From Planctomycetota bacterium (lineage in GTDB: Bacteria > Planctomycetota > UBA1135 > UBA2386), in NCBI GenBank assembly GCA_014192625.1, contig BJHM01000008.1:66944-130943 (forward strand): 64,000 nucleotides of DNA, written 5' to 3'. Under the pieces are notes generated by a model that had not been told where the DNA came from, searched no databases, and saw nothing but the letters and a program-made list of their open reading frames with translations. Each line of letters begins with the position of its first letter. The stretch's first letter is position 1. Positions 47,268 through 56,885 of this stretch are shown here, piece after piece. The translations under genes were made by a program, and so were the position numbers.

Positions 47268-48680
47268 ATGATCCCGCCCATCTCTCGCCGCGAGCTGCTG
47301 CGCAGTTGTTCGACTGGCTTTGGCCTCGCTGCATTGTCCGCCTTGTTGCCAAGACTAGAACCCGCGCGAGAAAGGCCCGCGCCCAACTTCCGTCCGCGCG
47401 CTCGCAACGTGATCTTCTGCTACATGTCCGGCGGCGTGTCTCAGGTCGACTCGTTTGACGACAAGCCGCTGCTGAAAAGGCTCGCTGGCAAGCCAATGCC
47501 AGTCAAGGTCGAGCGGACGATGTTCAACGACAACGGCAACATCATGCCGACACCGTTCACATTCGCGCAGCATGGCAAGAGCGGCATGATGATCAGCTCG
47601 ATGTTTCCGTCGCTCGCGCGCCACTGCGCCGACAAGCTCTGCGTGATCCGCTCGATGACCAGCAAGGTCAATGAGCACGCACAGGGCAATTACTTCTTCC
47701 ACACCGGCTTTCCATTCATCGGCCATCCGAGTGCGGGAGCGTGGGTTCACTACGGCCTCGGCACCGAGAATCAAAATCTACCTGGATTCGTGGTGCTGCA
47801 AAGTGGCGGCGCGGTAGCACCGCACGGCGGCGTTGGACTGTTTGGCAACGGGTTTTTACCGGCCCATCATCAGGCATCTATCTTGGTCGCCGATGCACAA
47901 GACCCGGTAGCAAACATAAAGCCGCGCGAGTCGCATTCGAACCAGCGCCGAGGTCTCGATTATCTTGCCGCTGCCGATGCGATGTTTGCCAGCGCGACCG
48001 CGCACGACCCGCAGGTCGAAGCTGCGATTCGCAACTACGAGACTGCGGCGCGGATGCAGACCGCGGTGCCAGAGCTTTGCGACCTGTCCTTGGAGTCTGC
48101 GGATACTCGCGCGCTCTACGGCCTCGATGATCCGGCGCCGCAGAAAGCCGCGTATGCAAGACAGTGCCTGCTCGCCAGGCGGCTAGTTGAGCGCGGCGTG
48201 CGCTTCGTCGAATTGAGTTGCATGACGCACAACATTGGCGCGGGCGGCGCGCCCAACCCCTGGGACCAGCATGGCGAACTGGCCAAGGGACACAAAGCGA
48301 TGGCACATCAAGTGGACCAGCCGATCGCTGCGTTGCTGATGGACCTCGAACGCCGAGGGCTGCTCGACGAGACGCTGGTGATCTGGGCTGGCGAGTTTGG
48401 TCGCACCCCATTTTCACAAGGCAGCAACGGGCGCGATCACAACCCGTACGGCTTCTCGATCTGGCTCGCCGGTGGCGGCACAAAGGGTGGCACGGTCTAC
48501 GGCGGGACGGACGAACTCGGGTATCACGCCATCGACAAGCCCACCACCGTCTACGACCTCTGGGCGACCGTGCTGTTCCTGCTGGGCATCGACCACGTGA
48601 ACCTGACGTTCTTATCTGGCGGCCGCAATCACCGTCTCACCGACGTCTACGGCAGCGTTATCCGCGAAGTCATCGCGTAA
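47268..48680 (+). CDS. DUF1501 (sulfatase/phosphatase-fold) protein with Tat signal
   Basis: N-terminal SRRELLRS twin-arginine motif plus a hydrophobic stretch, then [18 protein letters not shown] and [17 protein letters not shown], typical of DUF1501. Starts 18 nt after the PSCyt gene. Confidence 0.85.
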
Positions 48681-49527
48681 CCGGAACCGCACTCTGCGAG
48701 AATTTCCCTTCGCGCAGGAAATGTAGGACCTGGGTCAACATGGCTTCGCGCTCACTGATCGCGGTGTGACCAAAAGGTAGCGTGACCGAATCGACTGCGC
48801 CCGCGAGCGCTGCCTCACCCGTGCCAACCGTTCCGTCGTCGTGACCTTTGATGGACTCACTGCCCTCGCCGATGTCGCCGATGATGGTGCCCGAGCAATC
48901 GAGGAACAAGATGGGTTGCTGATGAAACGGATCGCCTGGACTGATCTGCATCGCCGCCTCGGTCCCCATGAAAAACGGGTAGGGCCACCAGTTTTTTCGC
49001 AAATCACACAGCATCGCACCGCGGTGCGGCGTAGCGATGTAGATACAGCGGAACGGCGTGCGCGCGCTGGCTAGACGCAAATACTCTTCGATCACCAGAC
49101 CACCCATCGAGTGCCCGACAAAGGCAACGTGCTGATACTCACCATGAGCAGCAATCTGCGCCTCGATCGCATCGCGCAGTCTTAGAGCGTGCGCTGACAA
49201 CGTGCCGTTGGTGCTCGGATAGCAAGGATTCAACACCGAGTAGCCAGCGGCCAACAAGGCCCGCTCCAAACGCCACATGGACCAACTCGACCGCCACAAT
49301 CCGTGCTGCAACACCACCAGCGTGTGCTTCGCATCGGGTCTCTGCAAAAGGTCTACCTCACTGCTAATCGGCGGCAGGTTGACCAGCACGTCGAACGGCG
49401 TTGCGACCGGCATGCCAAGGCCGATGCCTGCCCCGTAAAGCAGCAGCAAGCTGAGCACGCAGTAAAATAGCCGCTTCTGCCGCCAATACCGCGGCCGAGT
49501 TATTGAGGTGGCAAGTTCAGTCGGCAT
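48670..49527 (-). CDS. alpha/beta hydrolase (lipase/esterase-like) with N-terminal membrane anchor
   Basis: GHSMGG nucleophile elbow and an N-terminal TM segment ([19 protein letters not shown]). Start is ATG 49527 or 49542, both overlapping the miaE 3' end. Its 3' end overlaps the convergent DUF1501 gene by 11 nt. Confidence 0.7.
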
Positions 49528-50158
49528 TGCCGTGCCCGCCATGCAGATGAGGAGTGAACGGCAAAGTTGCAAGCGTGTTGGCCTCGTGCAAAGCGAGCAT
49601 TCGAAAGCGCTCCGCCACATTGGTTGCACCCGGCTGGTTCATTGCGGCCTCGACATAAACGAGATGGTGGCGCGCCTCCGCTTCAACCAGATCAAGATAG
49701 AACTCTGCCACAGACGCAAGAGCAGCTGGCAGAGCGCGTGCAAGGCAGCGCATCCGTTCACAAGACCGCGCCTCGATCAAAGCAGACACCAGCAACTCGT
49801 CGACCAATCGTTGCGGCAGGTGACTTTCGCAGGCGACTTTCAGCTGACTCGCGTAGCGACTGGGCGGCATCGACACAAAGGCGATTTGTTGCTGGTCTAT
49901 GACCCGCAGGGTGCGCTCGAAGTGCACGAGTTCTTCGCGCGCCAACTGCGACAACGAACGCTGCACGTTCGCATTCTGTGGCAGCACGAACAAAAACCGG
50001 TTGGCGGCCGCAGCTGCTTTCTTTTCCAACTGCGCCTGCTCAAGCAACAGCGCATGCAGGTGCGGCACAGCGCGAATACCCCAAGTAATAGGAGTGGCAG
50101 AGCGCAGTGAAAACAGCTCAGGATCGAGCTCAGTTTGAGTGTTCAAGTCATTCCCCAA
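49517..50158 (-). CDS. miaE: tRNA-(ms2io6A37)-hydroxylase, diiron ferritin-like
   Basis: 213 aa with EQAQLEKKAA, ELVHFERTLRVI, LIEARSCERM and EAEARHH (paired ExxH-type diiron motifs), matching the MiaE family layout. Confidence 0.8.
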   Translation of the reverse strand: MGNDLNTQTELDPELFSLRSATPITWGIRAVPHLHALLLEQAQLEKKAAAAANRFLFVLPQNANVQRSLSQLAREELVHFERTLRVIDQQQIAFVSMPPSRYASQLKVACESHLPQRLVDELLVSALIEARSCERMRCLARALPAALASVAEFYLDLVEAEARHHLVYVEAAMNQPGATNVAERFRMLALHEANTLATLPFTPHLHGGHGNAD

Positions 50159-52763
50159 CCAACGTCATATTACCCTGCGCAACGCCAATATGGGCGAGTG
50201 CTCCAGTTCTGCGAGCAAGGCTATCCGCATCTATCCGATGCGCCAAAAATTCGCGCCATGCAGCGAGCACTTCACCGGTAGCAGCGCGATCTTCGCGCAC
50301 AAACTCGACGCGAAACCGGCGCACCCCAGCCTTCTGCAAACGTTCTGACCAGCGTGCCGCCTGCTGGGGTTCGTAATGAAACACTGTATTTCGGCAACCC
50401 ACATCAACGATCACCGGGTGCTGCCGGCCCTGATGATCTTGCACCGCGATTTGATGGCGGTCGCAGGGCCGGCCGCATGAATGAAAATCGCGACCATTGC
50501 TGAGCAGGTGAGAATAAAGGCAGTGCTCGGTGTGATACGTGGGGATCCGATGATGCACAACGGCTGCCATCACTTGCGGTGGCACTTGTTTTAGCAGCGC
50601 AAACAACTGCGCTTCGTCGAGATCGAACGAAGCCGTCAGGGTATCAACGCCAAACCCGATCAGATGCATCGCGGTCAACGAGTTGGTGACGTTGAGCGAG
50701 AAGTCGCCGTGCAGCGCAAACTGCATCCCATCCTTGCGCGCCCGCAAGCAACGCATCAGGGCACCCCAGTGCCGGACCAGGACACCATCCGGCCGCAGTT
50801 TTAGAATGTGTTCGTCGAGTTGCTCGTCACCTGGCTTGCCGACGCGCGCCGTTGCGATCACGACCCGCAGGCCTTTTGCACGCGCACGATCGACCGCGCG
50901 ACCAAGCCCTGTGAACTCCATCCAATCAAGTTCCACCTCACGTAGACCAGCAGCAATCACTGCTTCGAGCTGTTCCTCACTGCGCACTAGCGGCACCAGC
51001 AGAGTCTCTTGCGGCAACTCGACCGCCAATGCGGACGGGATCGCGGCCAAGAGCTCTTGCCGCACTTTCGCTTCTACCGGCTCGGTCGCTACAGCATGAA
51101 CCGCGCCGCGCAAAAGTACCGGCAGGAGCTGCGCCACGAGTTCTCGGCGGAGTTCTTTCAGCTCCTGGGGTGCAAGGTGCGAACCCGTAGCCAACCTAGT
51201 TATGTCGAGTGTGGCAACGGTAAACGGCGTGCCGCCAAATCCGCCGAGCTTGTCGTGCAGCAGCTCTGCATCAAGCCCACGACTGCGCGCAACGGCAAGC
51301 AAAGTTTTGCTCTGCAACGTCACCTCGGTCTGATCCATCCTTGCGATCACCTGCAGCGGTTGGCCAAGTTCGCCAGAGACCGTCAGTGCAATTGCCACGC
51401 GCCCGTCTGGCGCAGTCGCTCGCACACCTTTTTCAACCAGAGCAGCAAGCACACCATCACTAGTGACGAACACCCGATCACCAACGCGAACACGCGACAA
51501 ATCAGGGCCGGGCTGGCCAAAACCAAGTTTCAATTCGTCGCCGCATTCATCGACATAGAACAAAGGGCCGCCTTGCTCGTCCTGTTCGGGCCTCCCTTGA
51601 TCAAACACCACGCCCATGCCTGGCCGCACAAGAAGCTCTGCTTGCACCACCTGCGATGCAAGCGGTGAACTGACCTCGCCCACCTTTGCCGCTGGCGGAT
51701 TGTTCATTGCTCGCGCCCCTGTCCAGGAAGCTGCTTGCGCCTCGCGCAGCACCAACACCGCATCGCTCAACACACGCTGGACGCGACCGATAAAAACGCC
51801 ACGATGTTTAGGAAAGCGACCCTCAATCAACGTCTGGTGATCGCTGCCGGCAAAGAATCCGTCGCTGAAACCACGCGTGTAGCTCAACGCCATGTCGAGT
51901 AAATCGCGCGACAACTGTCGCTCCGCTTCACTCCGGTCGCTGCCACTGGCGAGCGCGTCCACCCAACGTCGGTAGCCAGCCGTGGAGGTCGCAACGTATT
52001 GCGCGCTCTTTTGCCGGCCTTCGATCTTGAGGCTGTGCACGCCAATCTGCATCAACTCGGGAACCGCTCGCGCACCTGCGAGATCCTTTGGGCTGAGCAG
52101 ATACTGCACGTCGCCAAGGTCGCGTAATTCGCCATCAACGATCAGCGAATACGGCATACGACAACTCTGCGCGCACTGGCCGCGATTGGCCGAACGTCCG
52201 CCCCATGCTTCGCTCGTCAGGCATTGTCCGCTCCACGACACGCAGAGCGCGCCGTGGATGAACACTTCAAGCTCGAGATCGGTGCCCTCTGCAAACGCCT
52301 TGATCTCCTGCACGGAGAGCTCGCGTGGGACAACTACCCGGGTCACCTTGAGGCCACTGGCAAACAAAGCGCCGAGCGGACTCGAGATCGTCATCTGAGT
52401 GCTGCCATGCAGTTCGAGCGTGGGGCAGATCGCACGCGCGAGAATGCAGACCGCTGGATCCTGGACGATCAGCGCGTCGACGCCGGCTTTAGCAACGGCA
52501 CGCAGCACCACTGCGACGTGTGCCAGTTCGGGCTCAAACACCAAAGTGTTCAGGGTCACATAGGCCCTGGCGCCAGCGCGATGGATCTGCGCAACGGTAG
52601 CTGGCAAATCAGCGAGCGAGAAGTTGGCGGCTCGGGCGCGGGCGTTGAAGCCATCTTGCAAGCCGAAGTAAACCGCGTTGGCCCCGCTCTGGAGCGCGGC
52701 CGCAAGGGCCAAAGGCGAGCCGGCTGGGGCTAGCACTTCAGGTTTGCGAAAGGGCTTCTTCAT
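50148..52763 (-). CDS. tandem U32-family (peptidase U32 / TrhP-RlhA-UbiUV-type Fe-S) protein
   Basis: ATG 52761-52763 (MKKPFRKPEVLAPAGSPLALAAALQSGANAVYFGL, a typical U32 N-terminus). C-x6-C-x15-C-x3-C at 52161-52244. A second U32-like TIM-type module follows, with C-x14-C-x3-C at 50463-50522. 871 aa. Confidence 0.8.
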   Translation of the reverse strand: MKKPFRKPEVLAPAGSPLALAAALQSGANAVYFGLQDGFNARARAANFSLADLPATVAQIHRAGARAYVTLNTLVFEPELAHVAVVLRAVAKAGVDALIVQDPAVCILARAICPTLELHGSTQMTISSPLGALFASGLKVTRVVVPRELSVQEIKAFAEGTDLELEVFIHGALCVSWSGQCLTSEAWGGRSANRGQCAQSCRMPYSLIVDGELRDLGDVQYLLSPKDLAGARAVPELMQIGVHSLKIEGRQKSAQYVATSTAGYRRWVDALASGSDRSEAERQLSRDLLDMALSYTRGFSDGFFAGSDHQTLIEGRFPKHRGVFIGRVQRVLSDAVLVLREAQAASWTGARAMNNPPAAKVGEVSSPLASQVVQAELLVRPGMGVVFDQGRPEQDEQGGPLFYVDECGDELKLGFGQPGPDLSRVRVGDRVFVTSDGVLAALVEKGVRATAPDGRVAIALTVSGELGQPLQVIARMDQTEVTLQSKTLLAVARSRGLDAELLHDKLGGFGGTPFTVATLDITRLATGSHLAPQELKELRRELVAQLLPVLLRGAVHAVATEPVEAKVRQELLAAIPSALAVELPQETLLVPLVRSEEQLEAVIAAGLREVELDWMEFTGLGRAVDRARAKGLRVVIATARVGKPGDEQLDEHILKLRPDGVLVRHWGALMRCLRARKDGMQFALHGDFSLNVTNSLTAMHLIGFGVDTLTASFDLDEAQLFALLKQVPPQVMAAVVHHRIPTYHTEHCLYSHLLSNGRDFHSCGRPCDRHQIAVQDHQGRQHPVIVDVGCRNTVFHYEPQQAARWSERLQKAGVRRFRVEFVREDRAATGEVLAAWREFLAHRIDADSLARRTGALAHIGVAQGNMTLVGE

Positions 52764-52802
52764 TGGGGCGAAGTAGTATCGGGAGCTACCCTTCCCCTCG
52801 CA

Positions 52803-53081
52803 ATGACCACGGACGAACTGCACCAACTCCGCTGCCGCATGGACGCGATCAACTTGCGGCTGTGCGCCGTGCTGGAAGAGCGCGCTCAGCTGTGCCGCGC
52901 GATCGGTGCTTGGAAGCAACTGCACGGCGTTGCTATGGCGGATCCAGCACGCGAAACGGCAATGCTGACCCTATTACTGCAGCACGCGGGCACCGGTTTC
53001 GACGCGAAGGCGTTGGCGCGGATCTTACGCTTGGTGTTCGACGAATCGCGCGCCATCGTGATGCGCGCGACAACCAGCTAG
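52803..53081 (+). CDS. monofunctional chorismate mutase, AroQ (type II) class
   Basis: 92 aa. LRCRMDAINLRLCAVLEERAQLCRAIGAWK ... ADPARETAML ... LRLVFDESR follows the three-helix AroQ pattern. Confidence 0.75.
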   Translation: MTTDELHQLRCRMDAINLRLCAVLEERAQLCRAIGAWKQLHGVAMADPARETAMLTLLLQHAGTGFDAKALARILRLVFDESRAIVMRATTS

Positions 53082-53782
53082 TCGTCGATCGGTGATGCTG
53101 CGTTGCTGGTCTTTGCAGTCGGCACAGAAAGCACAGCAGGGACCATGAGCGGCAAGCCACTTCGCCCGACGTTGCTGCCATCAATACTGCGGACCAGCTT
53201 CTGCATGGTCGAAGTGAGCACGCGACCAGTGAGCATCACGCGACTTGGCGGGCGCATTGCGGGATCGGTGAGCTGACGTTCACCGTAAAGGCGTTCAAAC
53301 AAAACCGTGCGCTGACCGTCAAAACCAATGCTGCCCAGCACCTGAAGTTTCATGCCAAGCTCGCTGAGCGCCCGCGAGCCGGATTCCAGCTCCATGGAAC
53401 CCGTAAGGAAGGTGATCAGCGTCGGCTGGATCACGACATCGGCGTTGGCTGCACTATCGACAAAAGACGAAAACACATGGCTCTGCTGAAGGTCCTTGTG
53501 CAGCACATCATCGAGCATCTCTGCGACGGTCCGATTCCAGCGACTCTCATCGTCATAAACGATCGGGTAAGCGCCCTGCGTTGCTGGCAGCCCATCCTGC
53601 TCCCGATTATCGACGATCGGGGCCAAGAACAGCGTCCGATCACCAGGCATCCTTGAGGTGTAGGTGGTGCCTTTGTAGATCAAGTCGTTGAGGGCAAAGT
53701 CGGCGAGCTTGCTGTCGGTGGAACTACAAGCCGAAACAGCCAGTGCTAGCACGAGCGAACCCATGGTGAGGGGATGGTTCAT
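53078..53782 (-). CDS. hypothetical lipoprotein
   Basis: ATG 53780-53782 gives MNHPLTMGSLVLALAVSACSS (lipobox). No family recognised. Its stop shares the tetranucleotide CTAG (53078-53081) with the convergent chorismate mutase stop. Confidence 0.6.
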   Translation of the reverse strand: MNHPLTMGSLVLALAVSACSSTDSKLADFALNDLIYKGTTYTSRMPGDRTLFLAPIVDNREQDGLPATQGAYPIVYDDESRWNRTVAEMLDDVLHKDLQQSHVFSSFVDSAANADVVIQPTLITFLTGSMELESGSRALSELGMKLQVLGSIGFDGQRTVLFERLYGERQLTDPAMRPPSRVMLTGRVLTSTMQKLVRSIDGSNVGRSGLPLMVPAVLSVPTAKTSNAASPIDD

Positions 53783-53885
53783 GCCGGTGCCATCGGCATT
53801 TGGCAGCCTATACTTGAGTATGAACCGCACGAAACCGCGGCTTTGATCCGCGCCGCACAGATGGGTAGAAACATGCGCCTTCACC

Positions 53886-56885
<3,000 letters not shown>

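Follow-up and report, generated by a model that had tools for sequence, protein, structure and literature searches.

A long RlhA-type U32 gene paired with a small AroQ chorismate mutase gene in Planctomycetota and Myxococcota: a probable prephenate-dependent RNA hydroxylase beside a separate miaE cassette

Gene content of the locus

The DNA analysed here, referred to throughout as the window, is a stretch of 64,000 nucleotides (nt) of contig BJHM01000008.1 (assembly GCA_014192625.1) from a Planctomycetota bacterium. It carries a gene for a long protein of the U32 family, a small stand-alone gene for an AroQ-type chorismate mutase (CM) that diverges from the U32 gene across a short spacer, and, following the U32 gene, miaE together with a gene for an alpha/beta hydrolase (Table 1). 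The long U32 protein is of the RlhA type and is probably a prephenate-dependent RNA hydroxylase with a dedicated CM, its probable target being C2501 of 23S rRNA (product ho5C2501). Judged from the distribution of the genes, the adjacency to miaE is a local operon fusion and not the sign of an anaerobic pathway to ms2io6A.

The families named in the initial annotation (U32, MiaE, CM_2 and a lipase-like hydrolase) are those returned by Pfam profile search, and its open reading frame (ORF) coordinates and 39-nt divergent spacing of U32 and CM are borne out in the sequence. Two other assemblies (L002 and L003) match the window at 99.97-99.98% identity through every junction, so the gene arrangement is not an assembly artefact.

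Table 1. Coordinates of the genes, domains and control elements at the locus (positions in the window; aa, amino acids)
Feature	Position	Strand	Description
Long RlhA-type U32 gene	50148-52763	minus	871 aa; Pfam Peptidase_U32 E 4.8e-82 in two stretches, DUF3656 E 1e-13
N-terminal U32 barrel	51804-52763	minus	aa 1-320; canonical Cys motif C174-x6-C181-x15-C197-x3-C201 with E166, H170, Q180
DUF3656 domain	51123-51473	minus	aa 431-547; Pfam PF12392 E 1e-13, 52.4 bits against a cutoff of 22.1
Second U32-like barrel, RlhA2-type	50199-51011	minus	aa ~585-855; C748, C763, C767, C790
Stand-alone AroQ-type CM gene	52803-53081	plus	92 aa; Pfam CM_2 PF01817 E 2.7e-15
Divergent CM/U32 spacer	52764-52802		exactly 39 nt
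Candidate promoter of U32	52775-52803	minus	TTGCGA (52803-52798), 17 nt, GATACT (52780-52775), 11 nt, U32 ATG
miaE ORF	49517-50158	minus	213 aa; Pfam MiaE PF06175 E 1.9e-41
Alpha/beta hydrolase ORF	48670-49629	minus	319 aa; Pfam Abhydrolase_6 E 2.4e-11, DUF676 E 2e-5

Architecture of the U32 protein and kinship to RlhA

By BLASTP, residues E166, H170, C174, Q180 and C181 of the window U32 align with E161, H165, C169, Q175 and C176 of Escherichia coli RlhA (YdcP), for which mutational data show E161, C169 and C176 to be essential (PMC5727448). The spacing of the Cys cluster, C-x6-C-x15-C-x3-C, is likewise that of E. coli RlhA, and the complete N-terminal motif is invariant among 12 homologues, as are E166, H170 and Q180. 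Compared with the E. coli paralogues by BLASTP, the N-terminal domain scores 198 bits with RlhA (44% over 263 aa), 151 with TrhP, 124 with UbiU and 23.5 with UbiV. Using hhalign, a profile of the 12 homologues runs collinear with E. coli RlhA (1-559 to 1-516, probability 100, E 9.5e-53), a shared stretch of ~560 residues that spans U32, the middle domain and DUF3656. According to Kimura et al. (2017, PMC5727448), only RlhA combines U32 with DUF3656. By motif residues, by DUF3656 and by closest paralogue, the window U32 is thus placed by its sequence in the RlhA subfamily.

Membership in the neighbouring subfamilies is not indicated. The NCBIfam TrhP model NF011996 gives 204.3 bits against a cutoff of 534 and covers residues 6-218 only, and DUF3656, a domain that TrhP lacks, is present; the UbiU and UbiV equivalogs give 177.4 against 440 and 43.7 against 275, respectively. 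A UbiU/V-like quinone hydroxylase was considered and rejected, since these equivalog cutoffs are not passed and UbiT is missing: the called neighbours of the window U32 include no SCP2/UbiT-like gene. Public source annotations ("putative protease") and the Pfam family name would make the protein a collagenase-type peptidase, but this is barely credible, since the Fe-S Cys motif and the catalytic residues are common to RlhA and TrhP, the closest characterised members are hydroxylation factors, and linkage to a CM would be senseless for a protease.

The second Pfam U32 stretch is a weak match, and the C-terminal part of the protein finds the U32 domains of E. coli RlhA and TrhP by BLASTP with E values of 5.5e-4 and 2e-3. 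C748, C763, C767 and C790 of this C-terminal barrel are invariant among the 12 homologues, and in each of the two barrels the four invariant Cys presumably form a [4Fe-4S] site. The tandem U32 arrangement pointed out in the initial annotation is not new, because it matches the published long RlhA architecture of RlhA1, DUF3656 and RlhA2; about half of the RlhA1 homologues have such a second C-terminal U32 motif (RlhA2a/b), and RlhA1, RlhA2a and RlhA2b are grouped together as RlhA proteins in the literature (PMC5727448). E. coli RlhA differs in having a short Cys-rich tail where the window U32 has a full second barrel. That tail, with its essential C580 and C611, gives only short local BLASTP matches to the window U32 and no one-to-one mapping of Cys residues.

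An AlphaFold2 model of the window U32 (pLDDT 71) has a barrel at residues 1-320, with a low-confidence Cys loop at 172-205, and a (beta/alpha) barrel at 585-855. Foldseek with this model returns generic TIM barrels, including U32 peptidase 5d88, and is uninformative on substrate; a search of PDB chains by sequence gave zero matches.

The long U32 form is a large family of more than 150 clusters at 50% identity, with lengths of ~780-900 aa. One relative of 1699 aa (P0207) has two U32 domains and DUF3656 fused to DUF1601, FAST_1 and RAP domains. FAST_1 and RAP are eukaryotic organellar RNA-binding modules. The composition of P0207 suggests an RlhA-type hydroxylase of a eukaryote aimed at organellar RNA, and the fusion fits an RNA substrate for long U32 proteins. 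Among 18 over-long U32 relatives (913-1699 aa) no CM_2 domain was found, hence no Rosetta-stone fusion of U32 with CM.

Linkage of CM and U32 genes across genomes

Gene neighbourhoods were compared on the U32 side using one genome per GTDB species, and long U32 relatives (39-67% identity) turned up at 80 loci; the scan patterns were built for the clade of the window U32 only. All stop-to-stop ORFs within 8 kb on each side were searched with iteratively built hidden Markov models, and the counts below refer to these flanks, not to whole genomes. A CM_2 domain lies within 8 kb of U32 at 26 of the 80 species-level loci (binomial P = 5e-32 against a generous 1% null), and queries with the CM domains of E. 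coli PheA and TyrA recover the identical set of 26. When the neighbours were clustered all against all, no family other than CM recurred across phyla.

In Planctomycetota and allies the CM gene is divergent and immediately upstream of U32 (L010, L014, L015, L026, L027, L029, L042 and L052); at L011, L012 and L038 it is divergent and 1-2.5 kb upstream. In Myxococcota it is co-directional and downstream (L025, L031-L033, L036, L037, L039, L044, L045, L048, L055 and L065), and in Myxococcaceae a fusion of PDH_N and CM_2 domains adjoins U32 (L017, L022 and L023 in the scan, and also L009 and L176). On the U32 tree there are three CM arrangements, each in a U32 clade of its own. One myxobacterial clade has the co-directional downstream CM at 11 of 11 loci, start/stop-coupled at eight. 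The overlap of CM start and U32 stop at eight co-directional loci is 4 nt (ATGA or GTGA), which implies translational coupling of the two genes. The fusion proteins (L009, 9223-10281; L176, 8862-9932; L017, L022 and L023) are found in Myxococcaceae/Archangiaceae and are ~350 aa long; their CM domain stands at the C-terminus of the prephenate dehydrogenase (PDH) part, a domain order reversed relative to E. coli TyrA.

Closer to the window the linkage is constant. CM adjoins U32 in all close relatives examined (P0002, P0003, P0006, P0008 and L178); the closest, at 70-77% identity, keep the divergent CM, and the 39-nt spacer is present in P0003, P0006, L177 and L178. Pairwise identities or distances of CM and U32 are correlated (Mantel r 0.75, reached by 0 of 5000 permutations), which is consistent with co-inheritance of the two genes, although species phylogeny accounts for part of the correlation. 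Long U32 proteins of the two phyla, Planctomycetota and Myxococcota, share 52-67% identity across 870 residues, and members of both are intermingled on the neighbour-joining tree (L010-L065 with the window). This pattern suggests horizontal transfer of the U32 gene, possibly along with CM. As an alternative to its main proposal the initial annotation had offered a U32 enzyme with its own dedicated prephenate supply, and it is this alternative that is upheld by the recurrence of the CM-U32 pairing in Planctomycetota and Myxococcota, in three arrangements and with 4-nt overlaps.

Active-site residues of the linked chorismate mutases

The window CM matches PF01817 with 56.8 bits against a cutoff of 27 over 78 of the 80 model positions, which makes it a member of CM_2; every NCBIfam CM equivalog falls below its cutoff. 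Its numbering equals that of BsCM_2. Aligned with E. coli PheA/TyrA, R10, R27, K38, D47, R50 and E51 correspond to R11', R28, K39, D48, R51 and E52 of EcCM, and S82 to S84 (active-site set and residue equivalences of EcCM and BsCM_2 from PMC5526877). The full polar active-site set is not present, because Val86 replaces Gln88 of EcCM (Gln86 of BsCM_2). At the Gln88-equivalent position, Gln or Glu occurs in none of 28 U32-linked CMs from other loci (0/29 including the window), and the CM domain of the PDH_N-CM_2 fusions has Val there, like the window CM. In the myxobacterial coupled CMs helix 3 is truncated, and the proteins stop soon after the helix-3 Gly.

CMs that work with a partner enzyme offer the nearest comparison. 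The nearest solved sequences to the window CM are the CM domains of the DAH7PS-CM fusions 5j6f, 5gmu and 3nvt; DAH7PS CM domains of Bacillus, Listeria and Geobacillus are likewise small AroQ domains working with a partner enzyme, and they bind chorismate or prephenate in a regulatory role (PMC5526877). MtCM, of the AroQ-delta class, also has no Gln88 equivalent, combines a short C-terminus with a shortened helix 3 as in the myxobacterial U32-coupled CMs, and is a poor enzyme until DAHP synthase binds (PMC7762937). It differs from the window CM in using Arg46, where the window CM keeps Lys38, and in its partner, which is DAHP synthase, whereas the partner of the window CM would be a U32 hydroxylase.

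The missing Gln88 in U32-linked CMs hints at partner dependence, which is plausible but unproven. By analogy the U32-linked AroQ proteins might even form a distinct CM subclass, weak alone, that docks on the two-barrel U32 and produces or passes on prephenate at the hydroxylase active site. This is put forward tentatively, as a possibility below even likelihood. If true, the pair would carry an oxygen atom from chorismate to RNA unaided, and its simplicity could make it the first U32 system open to in vitro reconstitution. A word-indexed protein search with the 92-aa CM gave two near-identical matches only.

Control region in the divergent spacer

The 39 nt between CM and U32 hold the sequence GATACTAC, which occurs once in the 64-kb window. 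The same motif precedes the U32 start by 13-32 nt at L090, L093, L006, L010, L014, L015 (as a variant) and L178, and ATACTAC is present as the sole copy per locus at L090, L093, L006, L010 and L014. From the comparison of loci the conserved motif is TTGCxx-N15-17-GATACT. In the window its form TTGCGA-N17-GATACT is likely a sigma-70-type promoter with a very short leader, giving a near-leaderless U32 mRNA. The putative -35 element shares one base with the CM gene on the opposite strand, the first of its start codon. A generic promoter/terminator scan flagged no promoter in the 39-nt spacer, as the motif matches at 8 of 12 positions. The spacer would be a control region common to aroQ and U32.

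The miaE-hydrolase cassette and its junction with U32

The miaE product scores 142.5 bits with Pfam PF06175 against a cutoff of 27 and is thereby a member of the MiaE family. E41, E72-x2-H75, E125 and E157-x2-H160 are invariant among 15 homologues, and the solved MiaE structures 8fhc, 6zma and 2itb are matched with E 1e-24 to 3e-27. In family (PF06175), in length (~200 aa) and in the two ExxH motifs the protein resembles MiaE of Salmonella and Pseudomonas putida (PMC7515727); MiaE of the window clade differs from these in its constant downstream alpha/beta hydrolase and in falling below the NCBIfam MiaE equivalog cutoff (97.7 against 320). The hydrolase is DUF676/PGAP1-like, with a hydrophobic N-terminal segment.

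Two TTG codons are candidates for the miaE start. The U32 stop codon is TGA at 50150-50148. Starting at TTG 50158, miaE encodes 213 aa and overlaps U32 by 11 nt; starting at TTG 50146, as in public gene calls, it encodes 209 aa (49517-50146), leaves a gap of 1 nt to U32 and is preceded by GGGGAA. From these sequence features TTG 50146 is the more likely start, so that the 11-nt overlap reported in the initial annotation holds for the upstream codon and gives way to the 1-nt gap for the likelier one. By position, U32 and miaE are tightly coupled whichever TTG serves. The overlap of miaE with the lipase-like gene stands: the hydrolase start is most likely ATG 49542, used in public gene calls (48670-49542, ~290 aa), with an overlap of 26 nt.

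On the MiaE side, a scan of metagenomes with a MiaE alignment as query gave 80 loci, 63 of them with at least 500 nt of upstream DNA. A hydrolase homologue lies directly downstream of miaE at 25 of the 25 loci with MiaE at 50% identity or higher and no less than 300 nt of sequence behind it, and at 4 of 38 more distant MiaE loci. Because the hydrolase adjoins miaE at every one of the close loci, miaE and the hydrolase form a fixed cassette of their own, and the hydrolase stands outside the U32/CM unit. The miaE gene and its esterase/lipase-like partner often overlap (window 48670-50146; L095-L126; L178, 2929-4399).

The initial annotation had proposed that U32 may be an O2-independent, prephenate-fed maker of ms2io6A37 under anoxia, sitting beside its aerobic counterpart MiaE on the model of TrhP/TrhO or UbiUV/UbiIHF. 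The closeness of the two genes, with a gap of 1 nt or an overlap of 11 nt, speaks for such a pairing, as does the retention of the junction in two related lineages that have diverged to ~77% (U32) and 68% (MiaE). Both enzymes hydroxylate RNA, and aerobic/anaerobic pairs are known for other U32 systems. The distribution of the junction is narrow, however. Within 8 kb of U32, the 80 further species-level loci yielded no miaE; conversely, the 80 MiaE loci, 63 of them with 500 nt or more of upstream DNA, yielded neither a U32 nor a CM homologue. The closest MiaE homologue (P0272) is on L178, L179 and L180, which represent one population and have the gene order of the window (CM, divergent U32, miaE, hydrolase, convergent DUF1501). 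Compared with the window, U32 is 76.6% identical, CM 70%, MiaE 68% and the hydrolase 69.5%. L177, with a U32 77% identical, aligns with L178 past the U32 stop and 88 nt into miaE. On the tree the window, L178 and L177 form one clade, and its sister groups (P0003/P0005 and P0006) are without miaE; the junction is absent in relatives at 70-75% identity. Nor does U32 occur upstream of the MiaE relatives at 64-68% identity (L094 and L181).

Since it is limited to this one narrow clade, the U32-miaE junction is explained by a single juxtaposition event. The flanking synteny (DUF1501 and CM) is also kept within the clade, so shared ancestry suffices for the adjacency and functional coupling cannot be read from it. 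The reaction of MiaE is an O2-dependent hydroxylation of an allylic methyl group. The RlhA-type U32 would act on an aromatic ring, and this difference in chemistry makes U32 unlikely as an anaerobic substitute for MiaE. Taken together, these observations leave an anaerobic counterpart of MiaE very improbable. The conservation of the U32/miaE/aroQ neighbourhood, suggested in the initial annotation as a check, is accordingly split: aroQ-U32 holds at 26 of 80 loci and in the close relatives, and only the clade comprising the window, L178 and L177 adds miaE.

Proposed function and relation to known systems

The locus is best read as two conserved two-gene units, aroQ/U32 and miaE/hydrolase, whose fusion would date from the ancestor of one small planctomycete clade. 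In the first, the small AroQ CM would turn chorismate into prephenate; the two-barrel U32 would take oxygen from prephenate and hydroxylate C5 of an RNA pyrimidine, C2501 being favoured; and phenylpyruvate would leave. The miaE/hydrolase cassette would serve separately in the O2-dependent formation of ms2io6A37 in tRNA, having come to rest behind the U32 stop, with predicted co-transcription.

For the window U32, prephenate use and C2501 as substrate are what we infer from characterised relatives. E. coli RlhA needs prephenate and Fe-S for ho5C2501, as established genetically (PMC5727448). Prephenate is the oxygen donor for UbiU/V, and this was extended as a proposal to all U32 proteins, with a mechanism in which the aromatic ring first loses two electrons and then receives hydroxide as prephenate is decarboxylated, Fe-S serving as electron relay (PMC10990095). 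Prephenate as the U32 oxygen donor rests on E. coli genetics and isotope labelling, and in vitro assays are yet to be developed (2024 PNAS, PMC10990095); the 2019 TrhP paper states that there is as yet no evidence for direct catalysis of hydroxylation by RlhA or TrhP (PMC6599085).

Several points weigh against a hydroxylase with a dedicated CM acting on C2501. No CM lies within 8 kb at 54 of the 80 related loci, which makes the pairing optional, and the 26 genomes that have CM are kin to one another and do not count as independent events. The Myxococcaceae neighbour, a PDH-CM fusion typical of tyrosine biosynthesis, looks like a housekeeping enzyme. Autonomous activity of the linked CMs is uncertain because they are without a Gln88 equivalent. 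Finally, homology is the basis on which C2501 is assigned to the long form, because its C-terminal barrel differs from the short Cys-rich tail of E. coli RlhA.

The patchy linkage, the relatedness of the genomes and the PDH-CM fusion would also suit a CM that is a housekeeping AroQ for Phe/Tyr, placed beside U32 by inherited synteny without functional meaning. This is improbable: CM is the sole neighbour conserved across phyla, its three arrangements are tied to U32 clades, the 4-nt start/stop overlaps at eight loci and a frequency far above chance are not accounted for, close planctomycete relatives keep a fixed 39-nt divergent spacer with a conserved motif, and the prephenate dependence of RlhA is genetically established (PMC5727448).

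A second alternative keeps the local prephenate supply and changes the substrate: the long U32/CM pair could act on something other than C2501, either a different pyrimidine of rRNA or tRNA, or a small aromatic metabolite. In its favour, the second barrel takes the place of the E. coli RlhA C-terminal tail, metagenome-assembled genomes labelled Archangium occur in two U32 clades with different CM arrangements and may represent paralogues, and most U32 subfamilies are uncharacterised (PMC10990095). DUF3656 and the collinearity of the N-terminal 560 residues with RlhA argue the other way, as do the grouping of RlhA1, RlhA2a and RlhA2b as RlhA in the literature and the FAST/RAP fusion, which points to RNA. 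A different substrate is therefore judged rather unlikely, and ho5C2501 formation by an RlhA-type enzyme is retained as the probable function.

Compared with known systems, the aroQ/U32 pair differs from E. coli rlhA in its gene context: no CM gene adjoins rlhA, and its product depends on PheA/TyrA for prephenate, whereas the window U32 is paired with a small CM gene. The published long forms (RlhA1 with RlhA2a/b, PMC5727448) have the second C-terminal U32 motif in common with the window protein. UbiU-UbiV and TrhP1-TrhP2 carry out O2-independent, prephenate-dependent hydroxylation by paired U32 modules (PMC10990095, PMC6599085). UbiU-UbiV-UbiT and TrhP1-TrhP2 resemble the window in having two U32 modules, each with Cys ligands, and an accessory gene adjoining the U32 genes. 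Their modules are separate chains, whereas the window U32 carries both in one polypeptide, and the accessory gene encodes an SCP2 lipid carrier (UbiT) or a methyltransferase (TrmR) rather than a CM. In the TrhP/TrhO pair both enzymes make the same product (Sakai et al. 2019, PMC6599085); the U32 and MiaE families of the window differ in product and chemistry, and their adjacency is clade-specific.

The U32/RlhA enzyme family and its prephenate dependence are already known. The recurrent pairing of U32 with a dedicated Gln88-less AroQ, in places translationally coupled, appears to be new: outside subscription-only journals no literature on U32-chorismate mutase gene linkage was found, and the core U32 papers are silent on gene neighbourhood. 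Recurrence of the pairing in two phyla remote from E. coli backs the prephenate link independently, from comparative genomics. The locus also offers a natural two-protein test system (chorismate, CM and U32), and it defines an AroQ subclass without Gln88 that may be partner-dependent.

Surrounding genes

The 64-kb window contains no rRNA gene, and no tRNA genes were found in it. Other neighbours are PSCyt/PSD1 genes and DUF1501 genes, a pair typical of Planctomycetota, and the U32 relatives are annotated as Planctomycetota in public records. An ORF of 269-288 aa at 53078-53944 (minus strand) converges on CM, with a 4-nt overlap at the CM stop, and matches no Pfam or NCBIfam model. Beyond it lies an aconitase gene (53886-56885, plus strand, 999 aa), and the order aconitase, ORF 53078-53944, CM and U32 is kept on the contig carrying P0006. 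The aconitase has a basic C-terminal tail of ~100 residues, rich in Lys, Ala, Thr and Gln, that is reminiscent of histone H1-like or nucleic-acid-binding tails.

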